A stretch of 64,000 nt of DNA from contig SVHA01000006.1 in assembly GCA_015056085.1 (NCBI GenBank), forward strand, positions 11,729-75,728, written 5' to 3'. Numbering within the stretch: position 1 is the first letter of the stretch; each line of letters starts with the position of its first letter. The notes beneath the pieces were generated by a model, which worked only from the letters and a program-made list of their open reading frames with translations, was not told where the DNA came from and did not search any database. Positions 1,688 to 56,018 of this stretch are shown piece after piece. This DNA is from Clostridiales bacterium (lineage in GTDB: Bacteria; Bacillota; Clostridia; Christensenellales; Aristaeellaceae). A program made the position numbers and the translations under genes.

Positions 1688-2008
1688 ACAAACAAAAGCC
1701 CCCTCCGGAAGGGGGCACCGCCGTCAGGCGGTGGGGGAGCCTGCGGTGCAGCGGGTATGATTTCTTGCAAGGGGTAGCGCTTGTTGGATGTTCTTTCTCA
1801 AGCCTGAGAAAGAACCAAAGAGGGCCAGAGGGGGTGTCTCAATTCATCCCACCCGGAGACACCCCCTCTGGACTCCCCCCCTTTCCCCCGGTCTTGTGAG
1901 GGTTATTGAGTTGACTGACCCACAAACGCCTCGCGGGGGCGGCCCGCTTCGGGAGCGCTCCGATGGAGTCCGTGTGCGGCGACGGAGCGCCGCACGCCGG
2001 AACTGTCG
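1688..2008 (+). repeat. Module D: ~320-nt conserved structured core
   Basis: Shared with 6385-6832, 12112-12458 (reverse complement) and 26288-26637. Contains ccccctcc-gga-agggggc, caccgcc-gtca-ggcggtg, gttctttctca..tgagaaagaac, a 16-bp stem at 1825-1871 and gtgcggcg-acggag-cgccgcac. Confidence 0.9.
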
Positions 2009-2054
2009 TACCGGGGCGGGGATGAGGCGTGTTTCGGTTCCTTGCCGGAACAGG

Positions 2055-6328: not shown

Positions 6329-6384
6329 GGGGACACCTCCTGTCCTGTGGTTTCATGGTATGCGGGGGCGTTGCGGGTGTGTTC

Positions 6385-6832
6385 CTTGCAAGGGATAGCG
6401 CTTGTTGGGTGTTCTTTCTTGGGTCTGAGAAAACCCTTGCGGCATTTCGGTAATGATTAGCGTTCTTTCTCAAGCCTGGGAAAACCCTTGCGGCATTTCG
6501 GTAATGATAAGCGTTCTTTTTCGAGCCTGAGAAACCATTGCGGCATTTCGGTAATGATTAGTGTTCTTTCTCAAGCCTGAGAAAACTTTTGCGGCATTTC
6601 GGTAATGATTAGTGTTCTTTCTCAGGCCTGAGAAAGAACCAAAGAGGGCCAGAGGGGGTGTCTCAATTCATCCCACCCGGAGACACCCCCTCTGGACTCC
6701 CCCCTTTCCCCCTGTCTTGTGTTGGTTATTGAGTTGACTGCCCCACAAGCGCCTCGCAGGGGCGGCCCGTTTCAGGGTCGCTCCGATGGAGTCCGTGTGC
6801 GGCGACGGAGCGCCGCACGCCGGAACTGTTGT
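6385..6832 (+). repeat. Module D copy (contains the 51-bp tandem expansion)
   Basis: Runs from cttgcaagggatagcgcttgttgg to cgccgcacgccggaactgtt. The invariant 47-nt hairpin is at 6649-6695. Confidence 0.9.
6411..6640 (+). repeat. Tandem repeat, ~51-bp unit, 4 full copies plus the ancestral partial copy
   Basis: Units start at 6411, 6462, 6513, 6563 and 6614 (gttctttctcaagcctgagaaaacccttgcggcatttcggtaatgattagc). The whole unit repeats with no unique spacers. Confidence 0.9.
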
Positions 6833-6876
6833 GGAGTGTCTTGGTTGATACCTGTTTCACGACCTTGCCGTCACAA

Positions 6877-6913
6877 CCAGGGGGCTTTCCGATCGCCCCC
6901 TGGACCCCTTCGG
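6877..6913 (+). repeat. Module B2-short
   Basis: ccaggggg-ctttccgatcg-ccccctgg followed by accccttcgg. Confidence 0.85.
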
Positions 6914-7003
6914 CTTGACCCCTACCGGCAATCTTGAGCAAGCAACAAAAGAAAAACCGTTCCTCCAACAAGCAGGTTACAACCCTAAACAAGAGATGGG
7001 ACT

Positions 7004-7064
7004 CCGAAGGTTTCCAAAGGGCGATCGGAAAGCCCTTTGGTCGCCCGTGAGGGCGAAACCTCAC
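7004..7064 (-). repeat. Module B1-short
   Basis: The plus strand reads ccgaaggtttccaaagggcgatcggaaagccctttggtcgcccgtgagggcgaaacctcac. Confidence 0.85.
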
Positions 7065-7101
7065 TTTGCATAAAAGCATAGCCTGAAAGGAAAATCCATC
7101 T

Positions 7102-7133
7102 ACAAAAAATCCCCCAAGCCCTTGGGCTTGGGG
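7102..7133 (-). terminator. Terminator-like hairpin closing module A downstream of aconitase
   Basis: The minus strand reads ccccaagccc-aa-gggcttgggg followed by gattttttgtag. Confidence 0.6.
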
Positions 7134-7240
7134 TAATGGGTCAAGGGCCAATGGCCCTTGCGGGAGTCCAGAGGGCAGAGCCCTCTGGTGGGGCGTGGGG
7201 CAAAGCCCCACATAAGGGGGGCGTGGGGCGAAGCCCCTGG
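7108..7240 (-). repeat. Module A abutting the aconitase stop codon (7241)
   Basis: In gene sense there are three variable hairpins (for example gtggggc-ttt-gccccac and ccagagggc-tct-gccctctgg), then the constant hairpin and the terminator-like hairpin. Confidence 0.9.
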
Positions 7241-11916: not shown

Positions 11917-11997
11917 AACAAGAAAAGCCCTCTGGTTGTTGAGGACAAAATCGCCAAACAGGTATCGGATTACATACGGTACAGACTTTTTCCAATG

Positions 11998-12080
11998 CCC
12001 GCAGGCTCCCCACCGCCTTGCGCTGGAGCCCCCTCCTGGAGGGGGCTTTTGTTTGTGCCATGCTAAGACTACTTGCATCC
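11998..12080 (-). repeat. Duplicated fragment of module D (direct repeat of 12404-12482)
   Basis: gcaggctccccaccgcc..ggagccccctcc.ggagggggcttttgtttgtgccatgctaagactacttgcatcc occurs twice about 405 bp apart. Confidence 0.85.
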
Positions 12081-12111
12081 TTGTTAGTTGACTTAGCCCC
12101 GGTAAAAAATT

Positions 12112-12458
12112 GAAGCACGCTTCGTACCCGCTCCTCTACAACAGTTCCGGCGTGCGGCGCTCCGTCGCCGCACACGGACTCCATCGGAGCGCCCCCGAAA
12201 CGGGCCGCCCCCGCGAGGCGTTTGAGGGTAACTCAACTCAATAACCCTCACAAGACCGGGGGAAAGGGGGGAGTCCAGAGGGGGTGTCTCCGGGTGGGAT
12301 GAATTGAGACACCCCCTCTGGCCCTCTTTGGTTCTTTCTCAGGCCTGAGAAAGAACACCCAACAAACAATATCCCTTGCAAGAGGTCATACCCGCTGCAG
12401 CGCAGGCTCCCCACCGCCTGACGGCGGAGCCCCCTCCAGGAGGGGGCTTTTGTTTGTG
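12112..12458 (-). repeat. Module D copy (reverse orientation)
   Basis: The invariant 47-nt hairpin is at 12275-12321. The perfect palindrome gttctttctcaggcctgagaaagaac follows it. Confidence 0.9.
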
Positions 12459-12479
12459 CCATGCTAAGACTACTTGCAT

Positions 12480-12600
12480 CCGAAGGTTTCCAAAGGAAAC
12501 GAACTGCCCAGTGGGCAGTCGCCGAAGGCGAGTTTCCGGAGCGAAGCGGAGGCGGACCGATCGGAAAGCCCTTTGGTCGCCCGTGAGGGCGAAACCTCAC
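12480..12600 (-). repeat. Module B1-long
   Basis: The plus strand reads ccgaaggtttccaaaggaaacgaactgcccagtgggcag...ggaccgatcggaaagccctttggtcgcccgtgagggcgaaacctcac. Confidence 0.85.
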
Positions 12601-12629
12601 CTTGCATAAAAACATAGCCTGAAAGAAAA

Positions 12630-12671
12630 AACCACACATAAACAATCCCCCAAGCCCGTCAGGGCTTGGGG
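12630..12671 (-). terminator. Terminator-like hairpin closing module A downstream of the AI-2E gene
   Basis: The minus strand reads ccccaagccc-tgac-gggcttgggg followed by gattgtttatgtgtg. Confidence 0.5.
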
Positions 12672-12762
12672 TGATGGGTCAAGGGTCGAAGACCCTTGCG
12701 GGGGTGTCGGGGGCAGGGCCCCCGACCGGAGTGCAGAGGCAGAGCCTCTGCCAACGCCCCTC
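12644..12762 (-). repeat. Module A abutting the AI-2E transporter stop codon (12763)
   Basis: In gene sense: gcagaggc-tct-gcctctgc and tcgggggc-cct-gcccccga. The constant hairpin here reads caagggtc-ttc-gacccttg, a compensated C:G to T:A change. Confidence 0.9.
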
Positions 12763-13791
12763 CTACCCTCTCCAGCCATGAATGGCGCCCCGGACGGACA
12801 CCAGCAGGGGAATGGCCCCCACCATCCCCGGAATACCGGCGGCCATGCCGCCAGCCATCACCGCCAGCAGCACCACAATGGGGTGCAGATGCGTGGCGCC
12901 GGAAAGCAGCCGGGGCGAAAGCAGCAGGCTTTCCACCTGCTGCACGGCCACCAGCGCCGCCAGCGTCCACAGGGCGGGAGACAGCCCTGCCTGCAGCGCC
13001 AGCAGCACCGCAGGCACACCCACCAGCACCGGGCCCACATAGGGCACCAGTTCCATCACGCCCATCATCAGCCCCAAAAGCAGCCAGCCCGGCGTGCCGC
13101 ACAGCGCCAGCGCCCCGGCGGTCATCACCCCCACGGACAGGCTCAGCAGCAGCTGCCCCCGCACATACCCGGCGCTTTCCCGGCGCATTTCCCGGGCGGC
13201 CCGCACTGCCTGCATCCGATAGCGTACCGGCACTGCCATCAGCATCAGCGCGCTGATCTTCCGCCGGTCCCGAAGGAGATAATAGGACACAAGGGGCGCC
13301 AGAAGCACCTTGGTGGCGCCGCTGGCCATGCGGCGGATGGTCTCGGCGGCGGCGGACACCAGTTGGCCCAGATATCCGCTGACGGCGGAGAACGCCTTGC
13401 CCCTTAGATCGCTCAGGTCAAGGCCCCGCTCCGTCAGCCAGTGGGTGACGTCCGTCGCTCTTGCCTGTACCCAGGCGATCATCTCCGGCATGGCGCTGCT
13501 GATCTGCTCCGCCTGGCGCATCAGCGGGGGAATCACCCCCAGCAGCACCGTGAGCAGGATCAGCGCCAGCAAAAGCAAGGCGCCCAGCGCAGATATTTTG
13601 GGCGAAAACCGCTTTTCCAGCCATCGGGAGATGGGCAGGCAGGCCAGAAAAATCACCAGCGCCGCCGCCATCAGCCGGCACAGCGCCAGCACGATGTTCC
13701 ACGAAAAAATCAGCCCTGCGGCAAGGGCTGCAAATGCAATCAGCCGCCTGCGGCGCAGTGGCCAGGGACGAACCTCTCCCCCATGCGTCAC
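12763..13791 (-). CDS. AI-2E family transporter (PerM/YdiK-like permease)
   Basis: 342-aa polytopic protein with the family-typical LVPYVGPVLVGVPAVLLAL segment. GTG start has AAGGAGGG 6 nt upstream. Confidence 0.85.
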   Translation of the reverse strand: MTHGGEVRPWPLRRRRLIAFAALAAGLIFSWNIVLALCRLMAAALVIFLACLPISRWLEKRFSPKISALGALLLLALILLTVLLGVIPPLMRQAEQISSAMPEMIAWVQARATDVTHWLTERGLDLSDLRGKAFSAVSGYLGQLVSAAAETIRRMASGATKVLLAPLVSYYLLRDRRKISALMLMAVPVRYRMQAVRAAREMRRESAGYVRGQLLLSLSVGVMTAGALALCGTPGWLLLGLMMGVMELVPYVGPVLVGVPAVLLALQAGLSPALWTLAALVAVQQVESLLLSPRLLSGATHLHPIVVLLAVMAGGMAAGIPGMVGAIPLLVSVRGAIHGWRG

Positions 13792-16116: not shown

Positions 16117-17058
16117 TTAGCGCATAAACCAAGTGCTGATATAGCCGGTCTCGCCGTCAACATCCACCTTGCACCAGTCGGTGCCGTGTTCGATCACCGT
16201 CACCTTGGTGCCCACAGGCACGGTGCGGATGATGCTGCCCTTGAGGCTGGGCTGATTGCGGAAGTTGACAATGCTGCCGCCGTTGTAGTTCACCAGCGTC
16301 ATGGTGAAGGGCTTGATGGAGGCGTTTTCATTGGTAATTTTGAGGAAGGAGGCCATCATGTAGCCGATGGTGCCGTCTTCCGTCTGCACCTTGTGCCAGT
16401 CCTTGCCGCTCTTGACGATGGTCACCTTCGTGCCATTGCGGAACTGGCCCAGCACCTTGGCGTCCAGAGAGGGCTCGGCGCGGAAGTTGAGCACCTGGGT
16501 GTCACGGGGGTTGTTCACCACGGCCACCTTGCCCTGAGCGGCAGAGGGCTGCTCCTGAGCGAAGTTCAGGTATTCCGTGGCCATAAAGCCTTCCTGACCG
16601 TTCACCTTCACCCGGCTCCACTGGTGGCCCTTCTGTATCACGATCACTTCCGTGCCGGGCTTGAAAGAGGTGATGATCTCAGCGGAGAGGCTGGGGGCGT
16701 TACGGAGATTCAGGCCGATACCGGTGTTGGTGCGCACCTGCGCTTCCCGGTCCTCGCCGTCCCAGGTGAGGTACTTGGTCATCATGTAGCCGGACTTGCC
16801 GTTGACCTGCACCTTGCACCAGTCCTTGCCGTCTTCCACCACTTCCACCAGCGTGCCGGTGGGGAACTGGCCCAGCACCTTCGCCGTCAGAGAGGCTTCC
16901 TGGCGCAGGTTCAGCCGACCGCCCTTCACCAGTGCGCTGTCAGCAGCGTCAGCCATGGCGGCGCCTGCAAAGAGCATTGCAGCAGCGGCGGTCATGCCCG
17001 CCATGCGGCGCAGGGCGATGCGGGTTTTTTCGGGAGTGTTCTTCATGGGGGTCTTCAT
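16117..17058 (-). CDS. Secreted protein with four bacterial SH3 (SH3b) repeats
   Basis: Four repeats of LN(L/F)R..PSL.......G..V.V......W.KV...G..GYM. Signal peptide AAAAMLFAGAAMA. Start ATG 17058 (MKTPMKN) has AAGGAGG 9 nt upstream. Confidence 0.8.
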   Translation of the reverse strand: MKTPMKNTPEKTRIALRRMAGMTAAAAMLFAGAAMADAADSALVKGGRLNLRQEASLTAKVLGQFPTGTLVEVVEDGKDWCKVQVNGKSGYMMTKYLTWDGEDREAQVRTNTGIGLNLRNAPSLSAEIITSFKPGTEVIVIQKGHQWSRVKVNGQEGFMATEYLNFAQEQPSAAQGKVAVVNNPRDTQVLNFRAEPSLDAKVLGQFRNGTKVTIVKSGKDWHKVQTEDGTIGYMMASFLKITNENASIKPFTMTLVNYNGGSIVNFRNQPSLKGSIIRTVPVGTKVTVIEHGTDWCKVDVDGETGYISTWFMR

Positions 17059-25687: not shown

Positions 25688-25715
25688 TCTTGCGTCAATT
25701 GGGTTGAAACACTTC

Positions 25716-25746
25716 CCCCTCCGGAGCAATCCGGAGGGGTTTTTTG
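25716..25746 (+). terminator. Intrinsic terminator of the rpsF operon
   Basis: cccctccgga-gcaa-tccggagggg followed by tttttt. Confidence 0.9.
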
Positions 25747-25925
25747 TGGGGCTTTGCCCCTGCACCCTTTTGCGGGGCTTTGCCCCGCACCCCACCAGGG
25801 GCTCTGCCCCTGGACCCCGGTTGGGGGCCCTGCCCCCGACACCCCTTTCTGCGGGGCTTTGCCCCGCACCCCAGCAGGGGCTCTGCCCCTGCACCCCGCA
25901 AGGGCCATTGGCCCTTGACCCATCA
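25747..25925 (+). repeat. Module A, longest array (7 tandem hairpins)
   Basis: tggggc-ttt-gcccct, gcggggc-ttt-gccccgc, caggggc-tct-gcccctg, tgggggc-cct-gccccc, gcggggc-ttt-gccccgc, gcaggggc-tct-gcccctgc and gcaagggcc-att-ggcccttg. Each is followed by (C)ACCCC. Confidence 0.9.
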
Positions 25926-25964
25926 CCCGGAAATCCTGACGGATTTCCGGGGTGTTCTTTTTTT
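25926..25964 (+). terminator. Variant terminator hairpin closing module A
   Basis: cccggaaatcc-tgac-ggatttccggg followed by gtgttcttttttt. It has the same tgac loop as the ccccaagccc hairpins but a different stem. Confidence 0.65.
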
Positions 25965-26004
25965 GAGGTAGTTTTGGACATTTGGCTTGTTTTCACCGGG
26001 GCAA

Positions 26005-26102
26005 CCAGGGGGCTTTCCGATCGGTCCGCCTCCGCTTCGCTTCGGAAACTCGCCTTCGGCGACTGCCCACTGGGCAGTTCGTTTCCCCTGGACCCCTTCG
26101 GT
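26005..26102 (+). repeat. Module B2-long
   Basis: ccagggg...cccctgg closes the same ~70-nt insert as B1-long, followed by accccttcgg. Confidence 0.85.
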
Positions 26103-26186
26103 CTGCATCCTTGTAAGTAGACTTTGCCGGAACAAAAAAACCGTTTCTCCTACAAACATACTAATACCCCTTCATCCGGAGGGAGC

Positions 26187-26247
26187 CCGAAGGTTTCCAA
26201 AGGGCGATCGGAAAGCCCTTTGGTCGCCCGTGAGGGCGAAACCCCAC
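26187..26247 (-). repeat. Module B1-short
   Basis: The plus strand reads ccgaaggtttccaaagggcgatcggaaagccctttggtcgcccgtgagggcgaaaccccac. Confidence 0.85.
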
Positions 26248-26287
26248 CTCGCACAAAGACTTGTTTTGGAGAAAAATCGTGCGACGG

Positions 26288-26637
26288 CACAAACAAAAGC
26301 CCCCTCCGGGAGGGGGCTCCGCCGTCAGGCGGTGGGGGAGCCTGCGCTGCTGCGGGTATGACCTCTTGCAAGGGATAGCGCTTGATAGGCGTTCTTTCTC
26401 AGGCCTGAGAAAGAACCAAAGAGGGCCAGAGGGGGTGTCTCAATTCATCCCACCCGGAGACACCCCCTCTGGACTCCCCCCTTTCCCCCTGTCTTGTGAG
26501 AGTTATTGGGTTGACTGCCCCACAAACGCCTCGCGGGGGCGGCCCGTTTCGGGGTCGCTCCGATGGAGTCCGTGTGCGGCGACGGAGCGCCGCACGCCGG
26601 AACTGTTGTAGAGGAGCGGGTACGAAGCGTGCTTCGG
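26288..26637 (+). repeat. Module D copy
   Basis: The invariant 47-nt hairpin is at 26426-26472. The 3' extension ggaactgttgtagaggagcgggtacgaagcgtgcttc is shared with L3. Confidence 0.9.
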
Positions 26638-26727
26638 TTTGTTGCAGGAGCGAAGTCAACTTTCAAGAGATGGGACTCCGATGATAGTTGACCGAGCAAT
26701 AAACAAAGGCTAATCCCCCATACAAAC

Positions 26728-26772
26728 AATCCCCCAAGCCCTTCAAGGCTTGGGGTGATGGGTTAAGGGCCA
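26728..26772 (-). repeat. Truncated module A (terminator-like hairpin plus half of the constant hairpin)
   Basis: aatcccccaagcccttcaaggcttggggtgatgggttaagggcc, then an abrupt junction to taagactacttgcatcc. Confidence 0.8.
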
Positions 26773-26789
26773 AATAAGACTACTTGCAT

Positions 26790-26851
26790 CCGAAGGTTTC
26801 CAAAGGGCGATCGGAAAGCCCTTTGGTCGCCCGTGAGGGCGAAACCCTCAC
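26790..26851 (-). repeat. Module B1-short
   Basis: Same sequence as 7004-7064 and 26187-26247. Confidence 0.85.
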
Positions 26852-26885
26852 CTCGCACAAAAGCACAGTATGAAAGGAAAAGCCT

Positions 26886-26921
26886 ACATACAAAACATCC
26901 CCCAAGCCCTTGGGCTTGGGG
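26886..26921 (-). terminator. Terminator-like hairpin closing module A downstream of the zinc-ribbon/TPR gene
   Basis: The minus strand reads ccccaagccc-aa-gggcttgggg followed by gatgttttgtatg. Confidence 0.5.
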
Positions 26922-27054
26922 TGATAGGTCAAGGGCCAATGGCCCTTGCGGGGTGTAGGGGCAGCGCCCCCGACTGGGGTGCGGGGCAAAGCCCCGCAAA
27001 AGGGTCCAGGGGGCATAGCCCCCTGGTGGGTTCCCCAAGGGCAAAGCCCTTGGG
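26897..27054 (-). repeat. Module A abutting stop codon 27055
   Basis: In gene sense: cccaagggc-ttt-gcccttggg, ccagggggc-tat-gccccctgg and gcggggc-ttt-gccccgc, then one imperfect unit, the constant hairpin and the terminator-like hairpin. Confidence 0.9.
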
Positions 27055-29004
27055 TCAGTGCAGATACGTCCACAAAATCGCCGTACAGGCGCCGGAGGTG
27101 TTCAGGATGTACTCCAGCTGCCAGCGGTGGCCATCGCCGGTGCTGGCGATGTAGCGGATGATCTTCGTGCCGTCTTCCTGGAGATAAATCTTGCCCTTGT
27201 CGTCGTCATCTTCATACAGGCCGCGGTTGCCAGAAGCGCTGGCGACCTGGCCCATATCCTTGAACTTGCTTACGATGTCGCTTTCCATGGAGCCGATGCC
27301 GGTGCCGCGGGGGCCGCTGAAATAACTGCTGGTGAAGCACAGATCGCCCAGCACCCAGCCGGCGGAATTGTGGATCATGGTGACATAGCCCCAGGGATAG
27401 TAATACCGCATACATTCGTGCTGCAGCAGGGATGAAGTCACTGCCTCACTGCGCTCACCTTCGCCGTGCTGGAGGAAAAATTCCTCCCGGGTGGTGGCGG
27501 TCAGTTTCATGCCGCCGATGGCGTCAGCCATCTCAAAGGGCGCCTCCGGCCAGGGCTCAGCCATGATTTTGTAGGTGATTTCCTTGGTGTTGGAGGGCTT
27601 GCCGTAGCCGTTGACGGAAACCGCCCGGAGGGTGATCTTGCGGGCGGGCAGCTTGATGGGAGTGCCATCAAAAATGGGGCTGTCAGAATCCGGCGCAGAG
27701 CCATCAATGGTGTAGTAAATCACAATGTCCTGAGCCACGGGGTCTGTCAGGGTGGATTTATAGCCGGGATTCTTTTCCAGTTCCTCATCGGTGAGTTTGC
27801 CCGGCGTCAGGCGCACGGTCTGGGACTTCTGATAGGTGTTGGGGGCCAGATTGGCCTGGGGCTGCAGGGGCGTGGGCATGAAAATCTGATAGGTGACCTG
27901 CAGCGGGTCGCTGACGAGGGTCTCGCTGACAGCCACGGCCCGCAGCACGTGCTCGCCTTCTTCGCCAAGAGGGATGGTGCCCGTGTAGAGCGTGCCGCCC
28001 TCGGGCAGAACGGCCTCGGGGTCAAAGGTGTAGTAAATATCGTAGGATTCAGCGCTGGAAAGATTCAGCGACTTTTTCTGATTGTAATAGCCGCCGATGA
28101 GGTCTACGGTGGGGATGGAGGGCAGCAGTTCGCTGCGCTGCTGCAGGAAGGTCTCCTGACCGGTTTTTTCGTAGGCGAGTTTGAGCAGCTCGGCTGCTTC
28201 CGGGTCCCGGCGCTGGCTCAGGAGAATGCGCACCATGCTGCGATAGGCCTCCGGGGCGCTGGGGGCGATCTCCGTGTAGATTTCGGTGTAGAGCGCTTCG
28301 GCTTCTTCCAGGCGGCCGTCGGCTTCATAGGCGCTGCACAGGCTCATCAGGCCGGTGACGTTGATGTTGTCCTTGCCGTCCTTTTCCCGGGCCAGCAGGA
28401 AATACTCCACTGCGCCGTCGATGTCGCCGGTGTCCAGACGTTCTTCGCCCACCTGCCACAGAGCGGCAGCCTCGGCGTCCACGCCCATGCGGGCCAGAAT
28501 CAGCTGACCGCCGGGCGTCTTGTCCAGATACATATACATCCCGAAAGCGCCCAGCAAAAGCAAAATCACCAGCGCAATGGTGACATACGCCCAGTTGACG
28601 CCGCTGAAGCGCTTCTTTTTCGCCCGGCGATGGCGCACCCGCTCGCTGCCGGGCAGAAGGCCTTCGGCGGCCAGGCTGTTGTTGACTTCCCTCAGGGAGC
28701 GGATTTTCTCCGTGCCCATGCGGTCGCCGTTTTCGTCGTAGATTTCCGGGTCGGCGTACAGGGGGATATTGGTGGAGCTGCTGCGGGCAGAGGCGTCCAC
28801 ATAGGTGCGGCTGGCGCCCCTGCGGGGTACAGGCGCCGGAGCGGGGGACACCGGGCGAGCGGGGGTGCTCCTGGAACCGGTGCGACCCTGGCGGATGTTC
28901 TGCACACCGCCGCCGGATCCTTCGTCATGGGTCAGCAGCGTCTGACACTGGGGGCAGAGAATATCCTCTGCCGTGGCGTATGCGCCGCATTTGGGACACA
29001 GCAT
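27055..29004 (-). CDS. Zinc-ribbon / single-TM / TPR protein with two chitobiase-C-like (Ig-like) repeats
   Basis: MLCPKCGAYATAEDILCPQCQ is a zinc ribbon. TM segment VTIALVILLLLGAFGMYMYL. A TPR-like segment is present, plus IYYTFDPEAVLPEGGTLYTGTIPL and IYYTIDGSAPDSDSPIFDGTPIKL. AAGGAGGG lies 7 nt upstream. Confidence 0.75.
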   Translation of the reverse strand: MLCPKCGAYATAEDILCPQCQTLLTHDEGSGGGVQNIRQGRTGSRSTPARPVSPAPAPVPRRGASRTYVDASARSSSTNIPLYADPEIYDENGDRMGTEKIRSLREVNNSLAAEGLLPGSERVRHRRAKKKRFSGVNWAYVTIALVILLLLGAFGMYMYLDKTPGGQLILARMGVDAEAAALWQVGEERLDTGDIDGAVEYFLLAREKDGKDNINVTGLMSLCSAYEADGRLEEAEALYTEIYTEIAPSAPEAYRSMVRILLSQRRDPEAAELLKLAYEKTGQETFLQQRSELLPSIPTVDLIGGYYNQKKSLNLSSAESYDIYYTFDPEAVLPEGGTLYTGTIPLGEEGEHVLRAVAVSETLVSDPLQVTYQIFMPTPLQPQANLAPNTYQKSQTVRLTPGKLTDEELEKNPGYKSTLTDPVAQDIVIYYTIDGSAPDSDSPIFDGTPIKLPARKITLRAVSVNGYGKPSNTKEITYKIMAEPWPEAPFEMADAIGGMKLTATTREEFFLQHGEGERSEAVTSSLLQHECMRYYYPWGYVTMIHNSAGWVLGDLCFTSSYFSGPRGTGIGSMESDIVSKFKDMGQVASASGNRGLYEDDDDKGKIYLQEDGTKIIRYIASTGDGHRWQLEYILNTSGACTAILWTYLH

Positions 29005-52115: not shown

Positions 52116-54074
52116 ATGCGTAAATTCCTTTCCCTGCTGCTGGCGATGCTCCTGGCTCTTTCCCTGACCCCTGCTTTTGCGGAGGAAACGGGGGAAAGCG
52201 CCCCTGCTGACGCCGCCGCTGTGCCGGAAGCGACCGCCACCCCTGCGCCGCAGGTCTACCCCCTGTCGCTGGAAACGCCCGCCGGCGTCATCCGCCCCGG
52301 CAAGGCCACGCTGCTGACCTTCTCCGTGCCGGAATACGGCATGGTGGAGCTGCTGGTGGTCAACAATAACGGGGAAACGGTCTCCGTGGTCAGCGATACC
52401 TTCCTGGCCAATCCCGGTGTGAACAGCATCTGGTGGAACGGCACCTTCAACGGCGTTTTTGCCCCGGAAGGCGCCTTCACCCTGCTGCTTCGCACGGCCC
52501 AGGGCGAAGTATCCGTGCCGGTCACCATCGGCGCAGTCGCCCCCTATATGACCAATCTCCTTTCCAGCGTGGACAGTACCGCCCACACCATGACGGTGGA
52601 TTTCTACTGCAGCGTCAGCGGCCTTGTGAGCGTGGGCGTGTGGGTGGATGACATCTGGACGCTGGTGGATTCCCTGCAGGTGGAAGCGGGCGATGTGCAG
52701 TATGTGTGGGATATGACCACCGCCAACCCCAACACCCGTGCCCTGACCCTGACCCTCACCGGCGCTGACGGCTCCGCCTCCACCGAGGAACACATTCCCG
52801 TGCTGCCCGAGGATTTCCGTTTCCTGCAGGCAGAGGAAGAAACCACAGTTTCCCCCGACCCTGCCCAGCCGGAAGAAACCCATGAGCCGCTGGAAGCCCC
52901 GGAATCCATTGTTGTCGAGCCCACCGCCGCCCCTGAAAAGGAAGAAGTGTTCACCCCCGCCCACGGCAGCCCTTATGAAGGCATGGATACCACGCTCAAC
53001 TACTGGACGCTGCCCATGGACATCACCGACGAAGCCGCCGTGTGGGAAGTGCTTTCCCAGCCCATGACGGTCATCGACGGCGACTCCAAAACCCAGGCGT
53101 ATCTCTTTGCCGAGCCCGATCTGGACTCCGGCAAGGTGGCCATGGTCACCAGAGGCAGCCAGGGCCTGCACGTGCTGGAAACGCTGGACAACGGCTGGTC
53201 GCTGGTGGAGTGCTACTCCTCCTCCTTCCATGACAATCCCGTCAAGGCGTGGAATATGCTGGTGCAGGGCTATGTGAAGACCAATACCCTGAAAACCATC
53301 ACCCCCAACATGACTTACGGCTGTGTGGTGGACAAGCTGACCCAGCGCCTGTATGTTTTCCAGGATGGCAAACTCCTGTCCACCCTGCTGGTGTCCACCG
53401 GCATTGCCAACGAGCGCCAGCCCTACAACGAGACCCGCTCCGGCGAGTTTGTGTTCGCCAGCCCCACCGGCGGCTTCTGGAGCGACAATATGTACTGCCC
53501 CCGGGCCATCCGCTTCAATGACGGCGACCTGCTTCATGAAGTGCCCTATGTGTCCCGAGGCTCCAGCAAAATCTATTCCGTCACCGAGCCCTTCCTGGGG
53601 GAAAAGGCCAGCCATGGCTGCATTCGTGTGCAGCGCAAGAAGACCCCCGAGGGCATCAACATGGAATGGCTGTGGGAAAACCGCAAGATGGGCATCAAGA
53701 TCATCGTGTGGGAAGACTGGCAGGGCCGCCAGCTGGAAATTCCCTCGGACGACACGCTGCTTTACTATAACCCCGACGGCGGCGAGAGTTATCACAGCCA
53801 GATCACCTGCTATGCCTACGACGCCAATCAGTCGGAAATGACGCCCTTCACCTTCGGAGAACTGGATACGGAGCCCTATGCCTCGCTGGAAAGGTGTCAG
53901 TTCTGCGCCGTGACCAAGCGCCGCAGCGAACTGGAAGCCTTCAACGCCCTGTACGCCCCCGGCGGCGATCATGACCCGGTGATGACCCAGGCAAGGCAGA
54001 AGTTCCTGGACAGCCTGGATGAATCCCTGGCCCAGCGCATCATCGACGGCGTCCGCCCCGGCGACATTGAGTAA
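52116..54074 (+). CDS. L,D-transpeptidase (YkuD) family protein, secreted, with N-terminal Ig-like region
   Basis: Signal peptide MRKFLSLLLAMLLALSLTPAFA. Catalytic motif ASHGCIRV. GGAGG lies 8 nt before ATG 52116. Confidence 0.85.
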   Translation: MRKFLSLLLAMLLALSLTPAFAEETGESAPADAAAVPEATATPAPQVYPLSLETPAGVIRPGKATLLTFSVPEYGMVELLVVNNNGETVSVVSDTFLANPGVNSIWWNGTFNGVFAPEGAFTLLLRTAQGEVSVPVTIGAVAPYMTNLLSSVDSTAHTMTVDFYCSVSGLVSVGVWVDDIWTLVDSLQVEAGDVQYVWDMTTANPNTRALTLTLTGADGSASTEEHIPVLPEDFRFLQAEEETTVSPDPAQPEETHEPLEAPESIVVEPTAAPEKEEVFTPAHGSPYEGMDTTLNYWTLPMDITDEAAVWEVLSQPMTVIDGDSKTQAYLFAEPDLDSGKVAMVTRGSQGLHVLETLDNGWSLVECYSSSFHDNPVKAWNMLVQGYVKTNTLKTITPNMTYGCVVDKLTQRLYVFQDGKLLSTLLVSTGIANERQPYNETRSGEFVFASPTGGFWSDNMYCPRAIRFNDGDLLHEVPYVSRGSSKIYSVTEPFLGEKASHGCIRVQRKKTPEGINMEWLWENRKMGIKIIVWEDWQGRQLEIPSDDTLLYYNPDGGESYHSQITCYAYDANQSEMTPFTFGELDTEPYASLERCQFCAVTKRRSELEAFNALYAPGGDHDPVMTQARQKFLDSLDESLAQRIIDGVRPGDIE

Positions 54075-54107
54075 CCCATCGGGAAGGAGGAATCTCCCCT
54101 GAACATT

Positions 54108-54806
54108 GTGGACTATATCATCATCGGCGTCATTGGCGTCAGCGTGCTGTTCGGCTTTTACAGGGGCTTTGTCAGTTCCCTGCTCAATGCCGGCAGCGGC
54201 CTTGTCTCCTTTGGCCTGTCCTTTGTGCTGTATCCCAAACTGGCAGCGGTGATTCAGGGCAACGAGGAACTCGTCCGCACCCTGATGCACTACACCGACG
54301 CCTCCAGCCGCATCGGCAACCTGAGTTTGGCCACCACCAACGTGGTGCAGATGGGGCAGGAGAAAATCAACGAAGTGCTCACCAGCGTCAGCCTCCCTGA
54401 GCCGCTGAACACCATGCTGCAGGTGAATCTGGAAAGCCAGGTCTTTACCGGCACCAGCCTCACCACCGTCAATGATTATGTCAGCCAGACCATCCTGCAG
54501 GCCAGCATCAATATCCTGTGCTTTGTGGCGTGTTTCATCCTGACGTTCATCGCCCTGTCCCTGCTGGGCAGCGCCATCCGGGCGGTCTTCCGCCTGCCGG
54601 TGCTCAAGCAGCTGGACTGGCTCGCTGGCGGCGTTTTCGGCCTGCTGCGGGGCTTGCTCCTGTGTCTGGTGGTGTTCACCCTGGTTCCCCTTTTGACCAC
54701 CATGCTGCCTCTGGATTTCATCATGGAGGAAATCAATCAGAGCCAACTGGCGCCCATCTTCACCAGCGGCAACCTGATCATGGCCATCATGAACGGAAAA
54801 CTGTAA
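54108..54806 (+). CDS. cvpA: CvpA family membrane protein
   Basis: DYIIIGVIGVSVLFGFYRGFVSSLL is a CvpA-type N-terminus. GTG start. The RBS GAAGGAGG lies 17 nt upstream, so the exact start is uncertain. Confidence 0.75.
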   Translation: MDYIIIGVIGVSVLFGFYRGFVSSLLNAGSGLVSFGLSFVLYPKLAAVIQGNEELVRTLMHYTDASSRIGNLSLATTNVVQMGQEKINEVLTSVSLPEPLNTMLQVNLESQVFTGTSLTTVNDYVSQTILQASINILCFVACFILTFIALSLLGSAIRAVFRLPVLKQLDWLAGGVFGLLRGLLLCLVVFTLVPLLTTMLPLDFIMEEINQSQLAPIFTSGNLIMAIMNGKL

Positions 54807-54818
54807 TCAGGTGCAATC

Positions 54819-54859
54819 AAAAATCGCTCCCGCAAATGGCGGGTGTCCGTAAAACAGTT
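54819..54859 (+). repeat. Left inverted repeat of the cassette
   Basis: aaaaatcgctcccgcaaatggcgggtgtccgtaaaacagtt. Confidence 0.8.
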
Positions 54860-54860
54860 T

Positions 54861-54895
54861 TTGAGGGCAGCCAATAAGCTGCCCTCAATTTTCTT
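54861..54895 (+). terminator. Strong intrinsic terminator
   Basis: ttgagggcagc-caataa-gctgccctcaa followed by ttttctt. Confidence 0.85.
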
Positions 54896-54962
54896 GCAAT
54901 ATGGCAAGATAGATGTTATAATAAAGTCAGAACGACAAATCAGAATTCGGAGAGGTGTCAAC

Positions 54963-55352
54963 ATGGCAACAGAGTATTATAAACCTTGCAGAGAATTAGA
55001 TATTTGCAATGAGTTGATTGAAAAATTCTTTAACACACAGCAATATGACAAATGCTTCGAGGGGCATTTAGTTCTCGCAGAACAAGGGTATCCCCTTGCC
55101 GAGTGCCAGGTCGGTTATTTTTACTATGATGGCTTGGGGGTAGAAAAAGACTTAGCGAAGGCGCTATATTGGACACGCCGTGCAGCAGAACATGGAGATA
55201 GGGATGGACAATGTAATTTGGCGTGGTTCTATGAAGATGCCATAGGTGTTGAGCAAGATTTGGAAACTGCTAAGCATTGGTATAGAATGGCGGCAATGCA
55301 AGACCACGATTTGGCTATCGAAAAATGTAAAGAACTCGGTATTGATTTGTAA
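54963..55352 (+). CDS. Sel1-repeat (TPR-like) protein
   Basis: GYFYYDGLGVEKDLAKALYWTRRAAEHGDRDGQCNLAWFYEDAIGVEQDLETAKHWYRMAA contains two to three Sel1 repeats. AT-rich codon usage. Confidence 0.8.
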   Translation: MATEYYKPCRELDICNELIEKFFNTQQYDKCFEGHLVLAEQGYPLAECQVGYFYYDGLGVEKDLAKALYWTRRAAEHGDRDGQCNLAWFYEDAIGVEQDLETAKHWYRMAAMQDHDLAIEKCKELGIDL

Positions 55353-55435
55353 CAACAAATTCCAGTTTATCGAGCCGACTAAGGGCGCACTTCTATACAC
55401 CGTTCGGTGTTGTTGTGCGGTGTGCGGCTCCAAAG

Positions 55436-55456
55436 CCTCCCTTGTGTAAAGGGAGG
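55436..55456 (+). repeat. Hairpin / inverted repeat upstream of the DUF559 gene
   Basis: cctccctt-gtgta-aagggagg, followed by cacggc-gta-gccgtg (55460-55474). Confidence 0.8.
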
Positions 55457-55488
55457 TGGCACGGCGTAGCCGTGACGGAGGGATTGTC

Positions 55489-55857
55489 ATGCAGTCAAAG
55501 CATAATAAGCAGTTGGTTCCGTTGGCAAAGCATCTGCGAAAAGAAATGACCAAAGAAGAACGGCACCTGTGGTATGATTTTCTTCGTGGATACCCTGTCC
55601 GCTTTTCCAGGCAGAAAGTGTTAGGAAAATATATCGCTGACTTTTATAGCGCGGAAGCAAGGCTAGTCATTGAACTGGATGGTTCCCAGCACTACGAAAA
55701 TAAGAGCATGGTAAAAGATGCTGAACGAACAGCCTTTCTGGAAGATTATGGGCTGACTGTTATCCGAATTCCCAATAATGAAGTCAGCAGGAACTTTCGT
55801 GGGGTCTGTGAGTATATCGATGCTGCGGTAAAACAATCCCTCAGTCAGCTTCGCTGA
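55489..55857 (+). CDS. DUF559 endonuclease-domain protein (Vsr/restriction-endonuclease-like fold)
   Basis: LRKEMTKEERHLWYDFLR...FSRQKVLGKYIADFYSAEARLVIELDGSQH...DAERTAFLEDYGLTVIRI. GGAGGG lies 6 nt before ATG 55489. Confidence 0.85.
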   Translation: MQSKHNKQLVPLAKHLRKEMTKEERHLWYDFLRGYPVRFSRQKVLGKYIADFYSAEARLVIELDGSQHYENKSMVKDAERTAFLEDYGLTVIRIPNNEVSRNFRGVCEYIDAAVKQSLSQLR

Positions 55858-55859
55858 CA

Positions 55860-55880
55860 GCTCCCTTTACACAAGGGAGC
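55860..55880 (-). repeat. Hairpin / inverted repeat downstream of the DUF559 gene
   Basis: gctccctt-tacac-aagggagc is the reverse complement of 55436-55456 except for the terminal pair. It is preceded by gtcagc-ttc-gctgac, which overlaps the stop codon. Confidence 0.8.
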
Positions 55881-56018
55881 CTTTCTCAGAAGCCTGTTAC
55901 ATGAGAGCAAGATTCTACCATGGGTCTAAATTTGACCATGGCAATCTTGTTGGGGCGTGCCTGCCCCAAACCCCGCATATGAAAAATGGAGCGTATCACA
56001 CAATTGGTACGCTCCATT

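Follow-up and report, generated by a model that had tools for sequence, protein, structure and literature searches.

Intergenic loci and copies of the repeat

The 64-kb stretch of DNA considered here (hereafter the window; part of contig SVHA01000006.1 of a Clostridiales bacterium of the Christensenellales) carries genes that, together with 30 flanking proteins examined through Pfam and gene tables, are housekeeping only. Between these genes lie four long intergenic loci, each with one copy of a non-coding repeat unit, termed D, which contains a shorter hairpin (H1) followed by a 47-nt hairpin (H2). The latter – CCAGAGGGGGTGTCTC-AATTCATCCCACCCG-GAGACACCCCCTCTGG – occurs exactly at 1825-1871 (+), 6649-6695 (+), 12275-12321 (-) and 26426-26472 (+), as first noted in a preliminary description of this DNA, against an expectation of 0 matches in shuffled sequence. 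A fifth copy, D5, likewise in a long intergenic locus, is found outside the window, ~6.7 kb to its left, on a 106-kb metagenome contig that includes the window's genes (L001:20340-20680; L numbers denote contigs and genome loci throughout). The sequence of this organism's own genome that was covered amounts to about 75 kb (the 64-kb window and an adjacent ~11 kb). All five copies fall within about 34 kb, and the part of the window from 27 to 64 kb holds neither D nor any of the modules that accompany it (hairpin arrays, terminators, and the modules B and X). The loci and copies in the window are as follows.

1350-2545, 6330-7240, 11917-12763 and 25690-27055: mosaic intergenic loci, with hairpin arrays, terminators, B, X and D in differing orders
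1750-2030, plus strand: D1, a complete unit copy, supported by the alignment of the five paralogues, by full-length homology to units from metagenomes and metagenome-assembled genomes (MAGs), and by a match of covariance model R1 (see below) at 1786-1882 with 46.9 bits
6384-6855, plus strand: D2, a unit copy in which 51 nt are duplicated internally in tandem; H1 at 6614-6639, H2 at 6649-6695
12100-12395, minus strand: D3, a unit copy; H1 at 12331-12356, H2 at 12275-12321
26352-26640, plus strand: D4, a unit copy; H1 at 26391-26416, H2 at 26426-26472, preceded by module X at 26288-26335

The likeness of the four copies, previously judged by eye, is borne out by alignment: D1-D4 can be aligned over about 290-330 nt, with long identical stretches, and every hairpin listed earlier is found in the sequence as stated. 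The five paralogues are about 95% alike, and H2 is identical in all of them. Their conservation is uneven, with 1 variable site in the 99 columns of the core formed by H1, H2 and the C-rich tract behind it, compared with 21 in the next 114 columns (Fisher p=1.5e-5).

The loci themselves are mosaics. Short arrays of GC hairpins stand straight after the stop codons, canonical terminators (CCCCAAGCCC..GGGCTTGGGG plus a T-run) occur among them, and several distinct motifs recur in varying order and orientation at all four extragenic loci of the window, in the manner of bacterial interspersed mosaic elements (BIMEs). Module B has a hairpin (CCAAAGGGC-TTTCCGATC-GCCCTTTGG), of which a compensatory variant, CCAGGGGGC..GCCCCCTGG, is present at 2308-2350; uninterrupted copies lie at 2188-2225, 7004-7046, 26187-26229 and 26790-26832, and at 1563-1665 and 25999-26101 a ~62-nt element (GTCCGCC..CTGCCCACTGGGCAG..GTTTC) is nested inside the hairpin. 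B-like modules with similar insertions also adjoin full-length homologues of D in other species (e.g. L011:2950-3040).

Since a canonical terminator of its own separates every flanking gene from D, the unit sits in the insulated middle of its locus. No sigma-70-like promoter was found on either strand of locus 1 (1300-2600 scanned). Four of the five copies share the direction of the gene behind whose 3' end they stand; D2 is antisense to the genes on both of its sides.

Architecture of the unit

The unit proper extends from about 1750 (AGCGGGTATGA..CTTGCAAGGG) to about 2030, with a length of ~285-290 nt and a period of ~290-293 nt. Its parts follow one another in the order P0, H1, tail, H2, C-rich tract, a variable imperfect hairpin, P4, a 50-nt 3' block and GGAACTGTTG, behind which comes the start of a next unit, AGCGGGTACGA. 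They are listed here for D1, along with module X, which is separate from the unit.

Near AGCGGGTATGA-CTTGCAAGGG, at the unit start: P0, a weak mini-hairpin
1790-1815, plus strand: H1, a 26-nt palindrome with a 10-bp stem (GTTCTTTCTC/GAGAAAGAAC) and a 6-nt loop; the stem hardly varies between species, and its outer pairs co-vary
1816-1822, plus strand: the tail or tag CAAAGAG, 7 unpaired nt that link H1 to H2, kept with H1 in all element classes
1825-1871, plus strand: H2, the 47-nt hairpin, with a 16-bp perfect stem and a 15-nt loop; the same in the five paralogues, and in other species different in sequence with the pairing kept
1872-1889, plus strand: the C-rich tract ACTCCCCCCCTTTCCCCC behind H2 (ACCCCCC.. 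in homologues)
1927-1941, plus strand: P4, CGCCTC-GCG-GGGGCG, a small hairpin with a conserved U-G pair, near-identical in D, L011, L034, L173 and the L097 group
1956-2005, plus strand: the 3' block, invariant in the five paralogues, with CTCC-GAT-GGAG and the hairpin GTGCGGCG-ACGGAG-CGCCGCAC (1974-1995)
1694-1734, minus strand: module X, an intrinsic terminator (stem 1716-1698, then TTTTGTTTGT) and the hairpin CACCGCC-GTCA-GGCGGTG

The preliminary description had placed a conserved core of ~320-350 nt at 1688-2008. The repeat unit within it is real, at ~285 nt, but the first ~60 nt of that interval belong to module X, which contains AAAAGCCCCCTCC..GGAGGGGGC, including the hairpin AAAAGCCCCCTCC-GGA-AGGGGGC. 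This module is missing from D2 and D5, is found as a solo copy right behind the YbjN gene (12000-12080) and, with a further copy at 12401-12481, brackets D3 as an 81-nt direct repeat (94% identical, spacing 401 nt).

It had also been proposed that H2, read from the opposite strand, serves the convergent gene as a backstop intrinsic terminator – an idea favoured by its GC-rich stem, by the pyrimidine-rich CCCTCTTTGGTTCTTTCTC with which that strand continues, and by the convergent gene that four of the five copies face. An intrinsic terminator was defined as a GC-rich stem directly followed by a T/U run with at least 5 T in 8; H2 is followed by CCCTCTTTGG, which lacks such a run, and it is not among the eight sites returned by a terminator scan of 1300-2600, whereas genuine terminators in the same locus pass. 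Module X is one of those that do (GCCCCCTTCCGGAGGGGGC then TTTTGTTTGT, minus strand, 1698-1716): it is the true opposite-strand terminator, which had been folded into D. Furthermore, a canonical terminator already stands between each convergent gene and D, a ~285-nt unit with conserved islands far exceeds what termination needs, and the other element classes headed by H1 have no such hairpin before the tail. A terminator function of H2 is, on these grounds, very improbable.

The unit is non-coding, as had been supposed, with open frames that differ in strand and frame among copies and homologues. An open frame of 81-96 codons does cover most of D1-D4 (e.g. the frame ...RSDGVRVRRRSAARRNC) and might be taken for a small protein. 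However, it spans only 47 codons in D5 and contains a 1-nt indel in D1, the longest frames of 13 homologous units lie on differing strands and in differing frames, the homologues differ by many indels, what is conserved is base-paired stems, and gene callers predict nothing there; a D-encoded protein is scarcely credible.

Copies and strains differ in internal structure and surroundings. In D2 and D5, the segment from P0 to H1 is duplicated internally as a 51-nt repeat (6380-6632 in D2, which is not truncated). D2 has four such repeat units in the window compared with one in a sister strain (L180:1-640), in which the sequence directly 3' of the D2 end also differs, the flank having been swapped. 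On one metagenome contig (L002:1000-1950), the DnaJ gene adjoins the YbjN genes, a hybrid junction that implies a flip of the ~10-kb stretch lying between D1 and D3, which are inverted relative to each other. The crossover lies within the shared B/X modules, with locus-1 and locus-3 variants mixed, and the junction could be either a real recombination product or an assembly chimera.

Homologous units in other genomes

Exact searches for the H2 stem with a free loop gave no match in genome, metagenome or viral contigs, because H2 is lineage-specific; homologues come to light only through nhmmer and through a pattern combining H1 with its tail. An nhmmer profile of the five D copies led to diverged relatives in two related MAGs (L034 and L018), where H1 and CAAAGAG are unchanged and are followed by an H2 hairpin of other sequence, the C-tract and P4. 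The H1-tail pattern is found in 97 metagenome contigs and in one viral contig of 2.9 million, with about 0.07 chance matches expected by the author's estimate. Units homologous to D over their full length, here called class I, account for about 25 of the metagenome contigs and for the MAG loci L011 and L029. A D-type unit is thereby present in four other Christensenellales MAGs (L011, L018, L029 and L034), from genera whose marker homoserine dehydrogenases are 68-73% identical; the nearest homoserine dehydrogenases among GTDB species reach 73%.

Class-I units often stand head to tail, with a period of ~293 nt, or in inverted pairs, and are flanked by unrelated housekeeping genes. In several contigs (L124:2079-2300, L128:1685-1900, L118:690-779, L138:35-260 and L110:295-384), the 3' arm of H2 contains the same insertion of ~125 nt (ATCCACAATTCGG...CGCCACTGGCGGCG...), which is another small hairpin element that targets hairpins.

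These neighbourhoods also bear on whether D might be a riboswitch-like 5' leader that regulates a downstream gene in cis. The L034 unit – and only this one – fits, as it is placed about 85 nt before the start of a co-oriented ThrE-like gene, with a terminator on its other side. In the window, L018, L029 and most contigs, by contrast, the next gene is convergent or unrelated, and tandem and inverted arrays do not suit a leader, which makes this role extremely unlikely.

The positions of D are not conserved. A unit lies within 10 kb of the homoserine dehydrogenase gene in only 4 of 71 related genomes; the closest relative (L179, homoserine dehydrogenase 87% identical) has a plain terminator at the D1 site, and in a relative with an identical SSB protein (L185) the whole mosaic is absent. 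At both sites the neighbours differ too, so the exact boundaries of the unit cannot be read from them.

A phage or plasmid origin is unsupported, since blastn with D and one class-I unit found no match in plasmid or phage records and the H1-tail pattern occurs in only that single viral contig. A full-text literature search with the H1-tail sequence found no match.

Conservation of the fold

A covariance model of H1, tail and H2 (R1, 91 positions), built from 13 metagenomic units only, recovers the D copies at 43-47 bits. Across 34 distinct sequences, pairing is kept in 94.2% of cells, compared with 81.4% in shuffles and 42-54% in slid controls; changes on both sides affect 14 of 26 pairs overall and 12 of 16 in H2, and the covariation score is 0.387 against 0.14 (0 of 500), all in an alignment that had been fitted to this structure. 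The compensatory pattern in H1, H2 and a variable 3' hairpin also emerges from a plain MAFFT alignment of 13 units.

H1, although almost invariant, contributes to this pattern through its outer pairs, where G-C becomes C-G in 7 rows and A-U becomes U-A, C-G or G-C in 8, and through its third stem position, which is Watson-Crick in 63 of 72 distinct instances, with all four pair types represented. The base pairs of H1 and H2 are thus supported by compensatory changes, and the hairpins have therefore been maintained by selection. These two stems are near-purely Watson-Crick over 10-18 bp, with G-U in 13 and A-C in 12 of 722 cells and hence no asymmetry that would point to one strand.

A head module shared with unrelated elements

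The combination of H1 and its tail is not confined to D: at least four element classes, whose downstream sequences are unrelated, have it in common. Its near invariance is partly a product of searching with H1, and diverged versions exist in L011 and L029. In nine contigs of 40-58% GC (L086, L093, L099, L121, L125, L143, L149, L160 and L165), H1 plus CAAAGAG heads a domain of ~200-230 nt. In these low-GC domains, the tail is followed by a long-range co-varying helix of 10-13 bp around a hairpin of 11-18 bp, with a different sequence for each helix from contig to contig. Here, too, the adjacent genes are unrelated. A direct repeat of 22 nt, made up of the upstream gene end and terminator, stands on either side of the L093 element. 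In three other contigs (L154, L156 and L162), H1 and tail form inverted doublets of ~120 nt. The module generally lies 10-60 nt after stop codons, and none of 96 instances falls inside an open reading frame.

It is possible, though doubtful, that H1, CAAAGAG and a co-varying helix define an undescribed and phylogenetically broad superfamily of ~200-300-nt elements folded as single strands, whether RNA or single-stranded DNA that some enzyme would recognise. The Christensenellales class I, with its local helix H2, and the nine low-GC contigs, with a long-range helix, would then be branches of it.

One homolog stands apart, L011:2690-2730, the only one with changes in the H1 arms (here CTTTTCG/CGAAAAG) and in the tail (here CAAAAGC) alike, the lengths of A-run and T-run being still matched. 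A purine-motif triplex or mirror repeat formed by the 3' arm of H1 and the tail, which this locus brought to mind, was rejected as the main idea, since in L029 only the tail has changed and the register would be sterically implausible.

Interspersed repeat or structured RNA

Taken together, D has the appearance of a new family of structured interspersed repeats, and not of a terminator, a peptide gene or a catalogued RNA. The reading favoured here, to which about an even chance is given, is that of an interspersed mosaic repeat, non-autonomous and dependent on structure, of the type represented by BIME, REPIN and BOX. It is favoured because the units are non-syntenic, cluster in mosaics, form tandem and inverted arrays, lack a promoter, stand behind terminators, have perfect stems and are unstable between strains. 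The identity of H2 within the genome, together with its different sequence between genera, fits recent spread or homogenisation, and the long Watson-Crick stems are, by analogy, as in DNA palindromic repeats.

On this reading, D would be this organism's version of a lineage-wide non-coding unit made up of a string of local hairpins, which would multiply and be homogenised within a genome as DNA. Units would gather between convergent terminators alongside other repeat modules, build tandem or inverted arrays, and promote rearrangement, as in the variation of repeat number and possibly in the 10-kb inversion. Selection would act on the fold of one strand, chiefly on the double hairpin of H1, tail and H2, and a trans-acting factor may recognise this fold in single-stranded nucleic acid – DNA or RNA – much as Y1 transposases do with REP/REPIN sequences (REP, repetitive extragenic palindrome) and elements of the IS200/IS605 type. 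Alternatively, it could resemble the action of BOX and ERIC repeats once these are transcribed.

A number of observations weigh against such a repeat. The preliminary description had offered two names for D, a large structured RNA or the body of a MITE, a miniature transposable element with inverted repeats. It was right about a multi-copy structured element, the hairpins of which are kept by compensatory change in other species, but D is probably not a classical MITE, since terminal inverted repeats, target-site duplications and a consistent flanking target were all looked for in the D units and homologues and none was found. The unit ends (..AGCGGGTATGA-CTTGCAAGGG and ..GGAACTGTTG; TTTGCCC.. 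and ..GGCACCGTTG in homologues) are not inverted copies of each other, and no copy-specific short duplications are seen, every D copy instead running into the beginning of another unit. Neither the window nor the surroundings of units elsewhere contain a transposase, recombinase or reverse transcriptase, and the 64-kb window and the adjacent ~11 kb contain no cognate autonomous element. Comparison with L179, L185 and the sister-strain contigs, which terminate inside the repeats, yielded no pair of empty and filled sites.

Weighing on the same side are features that would be expected of an RNA. Three putative helices (P3, P4 and iii) contain 63 G-U and 2 A-C cells, and all of their variation preserves pairing on the plus strand only, albeit in helices chosen from a plus-strand prediction and with changes on one side only, none of them double. 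The plus strand also folds more stably than the other in 12 of 13 units. At least six islands are kept between genera – H1 with its tail, the start of the H2 loop, the C-tract, P4, CTCC-N3-GGAG and GCAC..GGRACTG – and such islands, combined with compensatory stems, usually mark a functional structured RNA and are uncommon in selfish repeats. Finally, of the genes upstream of H1 and tail, 43 are co-oriented and 14 opposite; of those downstream, 24 are convergent and 12 co-oriented.

These features support the principal rival, in which D and its homologues would be new multi-copy structured non-coding RNA genes, or co-transcribed modules, of about 290 nt read from the plus strand, with H1, tail and H2 as a protein- or ligand-binding core, possibly with a pseudoknot, and the tandem arrays as arrays of RNA units. 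Compensatory evolution of H1 and H2, the co-varying long-range helix that closes the low-GC domains, and the absence of end repeats, duplications and a partner enzyme all favour it. So does the complementarity of the H1 loop to the 7 nt after the tail (3.52 compared with 2.53+-0.10 for shuffled partners, from few independent subfamilies), which makes a pseudoknot between them possible, and so does the single unit of L029, the only copy followed by a terminator-like hairpin. As for Rfam, covariance models at their gathering thresholds gave no relevant match in the window, in L018/L034, in 15 class-I loci or in 20 loci of other H1 classes, and permissive Rfam 15 scans gave only chance matches to miRNA-like hairpins; an RNA would consequently be new.

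On the other side, D is at most a candidate RNA gene, given the lack of a promoter, of conserved synteny and of an Rfam match. Neither strand of 1300-2600 offers a promoter, the copies lie behind terminators, D2 being antisense to both neighbours, and positions are non-syntenic. Perfect stems of 16-18 bp, in which G-U is no commoner than A-C, are atypical of cellular RNAs, and the three G-U-rich helices were picked from the plus-strand prediction and lack changes on both sides. Nor does the orientation bias separate the two readings: replication-strand-specific insertion, established for IS200/IS605-type elements, would give the same bias when combined with gene-strand bias. An RNA identity is accordingly rated as unlikely, if well short of remote. 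By analogy with transcribed repeats, the repeat and RNA readings need not be mutually exclusive.

Other candidates were considered and rejected. A sponge for CsrA-type GGA binding is not indicated, as GGA motifs per unit are about as frequent as composition predicts (by estimate), and attC sites or integron cassettes, a sigma-54 promoter and CRISPR-like repeats were dismissed by reading, their defining motifs or spacing being absent.

Two further features of the window lie apart from D. At 16139-16915, 4-5 copies of a ~222-nt periodic repeat occur inside an apparent coding region (a repeat-domain protein on the minus strand), and the interval 54000-56000 has a G+C content of 0.505, compared with about 0.60 elsewhere, and encodes small proteins without Pfam matches, a DUF559 protein and a Sel1-repeat protein.

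Significance

If D is an interspersed repeat of the kind favoured here, uncultured Christensenellales would own a rich system of interspersed mosaic repeats, a type of sequence that has so far been investigated almost exclusively in Proteobacteria and in a few pathogenic Firmicutes. Both the size and the regularity of the unit are unusual, and between related genera from gut and rumen the unit is conserved by structure rather than by sequence. Repeats like these break metagenome assemblies – many contigs here end inside units – and lead to inversions, variation in repeat number and confusion with RNA genes. The near-invariant, tagged H1 offers a handle for finding the factor that would recognise it, be it a transposase or an RNA-binding protein.

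Should the RNA reading be true instead, D would represent a new, widespread class of structured RNA that is absent from Rfam. If the H1-tail superfamily as a whole is transcribed as tandemly arrayed structured RNAs with a conserved protein-binding head, it would be a new class of large non-coding RNA in gut, rumen and soil bacteria.

Comparison with known systems

REPs are palindromes of 20-40 nt with an unpaired GTAG or CGTC tag, found outside genes, mostly downstream of open reading frames and between convergent or co-directional genes (PMC3733652). Once co-transcribed, BOX and ERIC as well as many REPs function at the RNA level (PMC3733652). Like D, the REP/BIME/REPIN-RAYT systems of Proteobacteria consist of extragenic hairpin repeats with an unpaired conserved tag beside a palindrome; they lie after coding regions, combine several motif types in mosaic order, form inverted doublets, and spread within genomes with little positional spread between species (PMC3733652, PMC3116915). 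The H1-tail module shares their extragenic distribution, with 0 of 96 instances in open reading frames, and H1 itself has the shape of a REP, as a hairpin of 24-30 nt with an unpaired tag. This tag, however, is neither GTAG nor CGTC but CAAAGAG (read from the other strand, CTCTTTG), and it lies on the 3' side. The D unit is also far larger than a 20-40-nt palindrome, with about 285 nt and 6-9 hairpins, its H1 stays conserved between genera and even between contigs that differ greatly in GC, and its host is a Firmicute (Christensenellales) in which no RAYT gene was seen within about 75 kb, a further mark of REP/REPIN systems being hundreds of copies per genome and a RAYT gene with the repeat on its flanks.

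In Gram-positive and enteric bacteria, BOX (Streptococcus pneumoniae), ERIC (enterobacteria) and bcr (Bacillus cereus group) are modular, non-coding intergenic repeats of 100-300 nt with stable hairpins. Some of them have compensatory changes and are transcribed with neighbouring genes, and their module number varies. D resembles them in being modular, non-coding, hairpin-folding and variable in module number. It differs in having no sequence similarity to them, in forming regular tandem arrays of ~293 nt, and in sharing its head module with unrelated classes. One member of the bcr group, bcr1, is treated in PMC6542083 and PMC3184786.

Miniature elements derived from IS200/IS605 (PATEs, served by Y1 transposases) are devoid of terminal inverted repeats and target duplications, neither of which was seen in D, and further points of comparison are recognition of hairpins in single-stranded DNA, strand-specific orientation and stems that co-vary between lineages. 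D departs from them in having no conserved 4-5-nt left target (solo units are flanked by ..CATT, ..ATGA, ..GGTG, ..ATAG and ..TCGA), unrelated end hairpins, no TnpA or TnpB nearby and no match to the Rfam IS605-orfB or HEARO models. With HEARO (the omega RNA of IscB), ROOL, GOLLD and STAXI it shares a large and structured form, frequent multiple copies, the absence of a fixed neighbour and an occurrence in gut and rumen metagenomes; none of these models matches D at gathering or permissive thresholds, and the hairpins of D are simpler, longer and perfect.

The D family thus fails to show what defines classical MITEs, REPs with GTAG or CGTC tags, or derivatives of IS200/IS605. The closest known kind is that of tagged extragenic palindromes and mosaics, REP/BIME/REPIN, along with the modular repeats BOX and bcr of Gram-positive bacteria.

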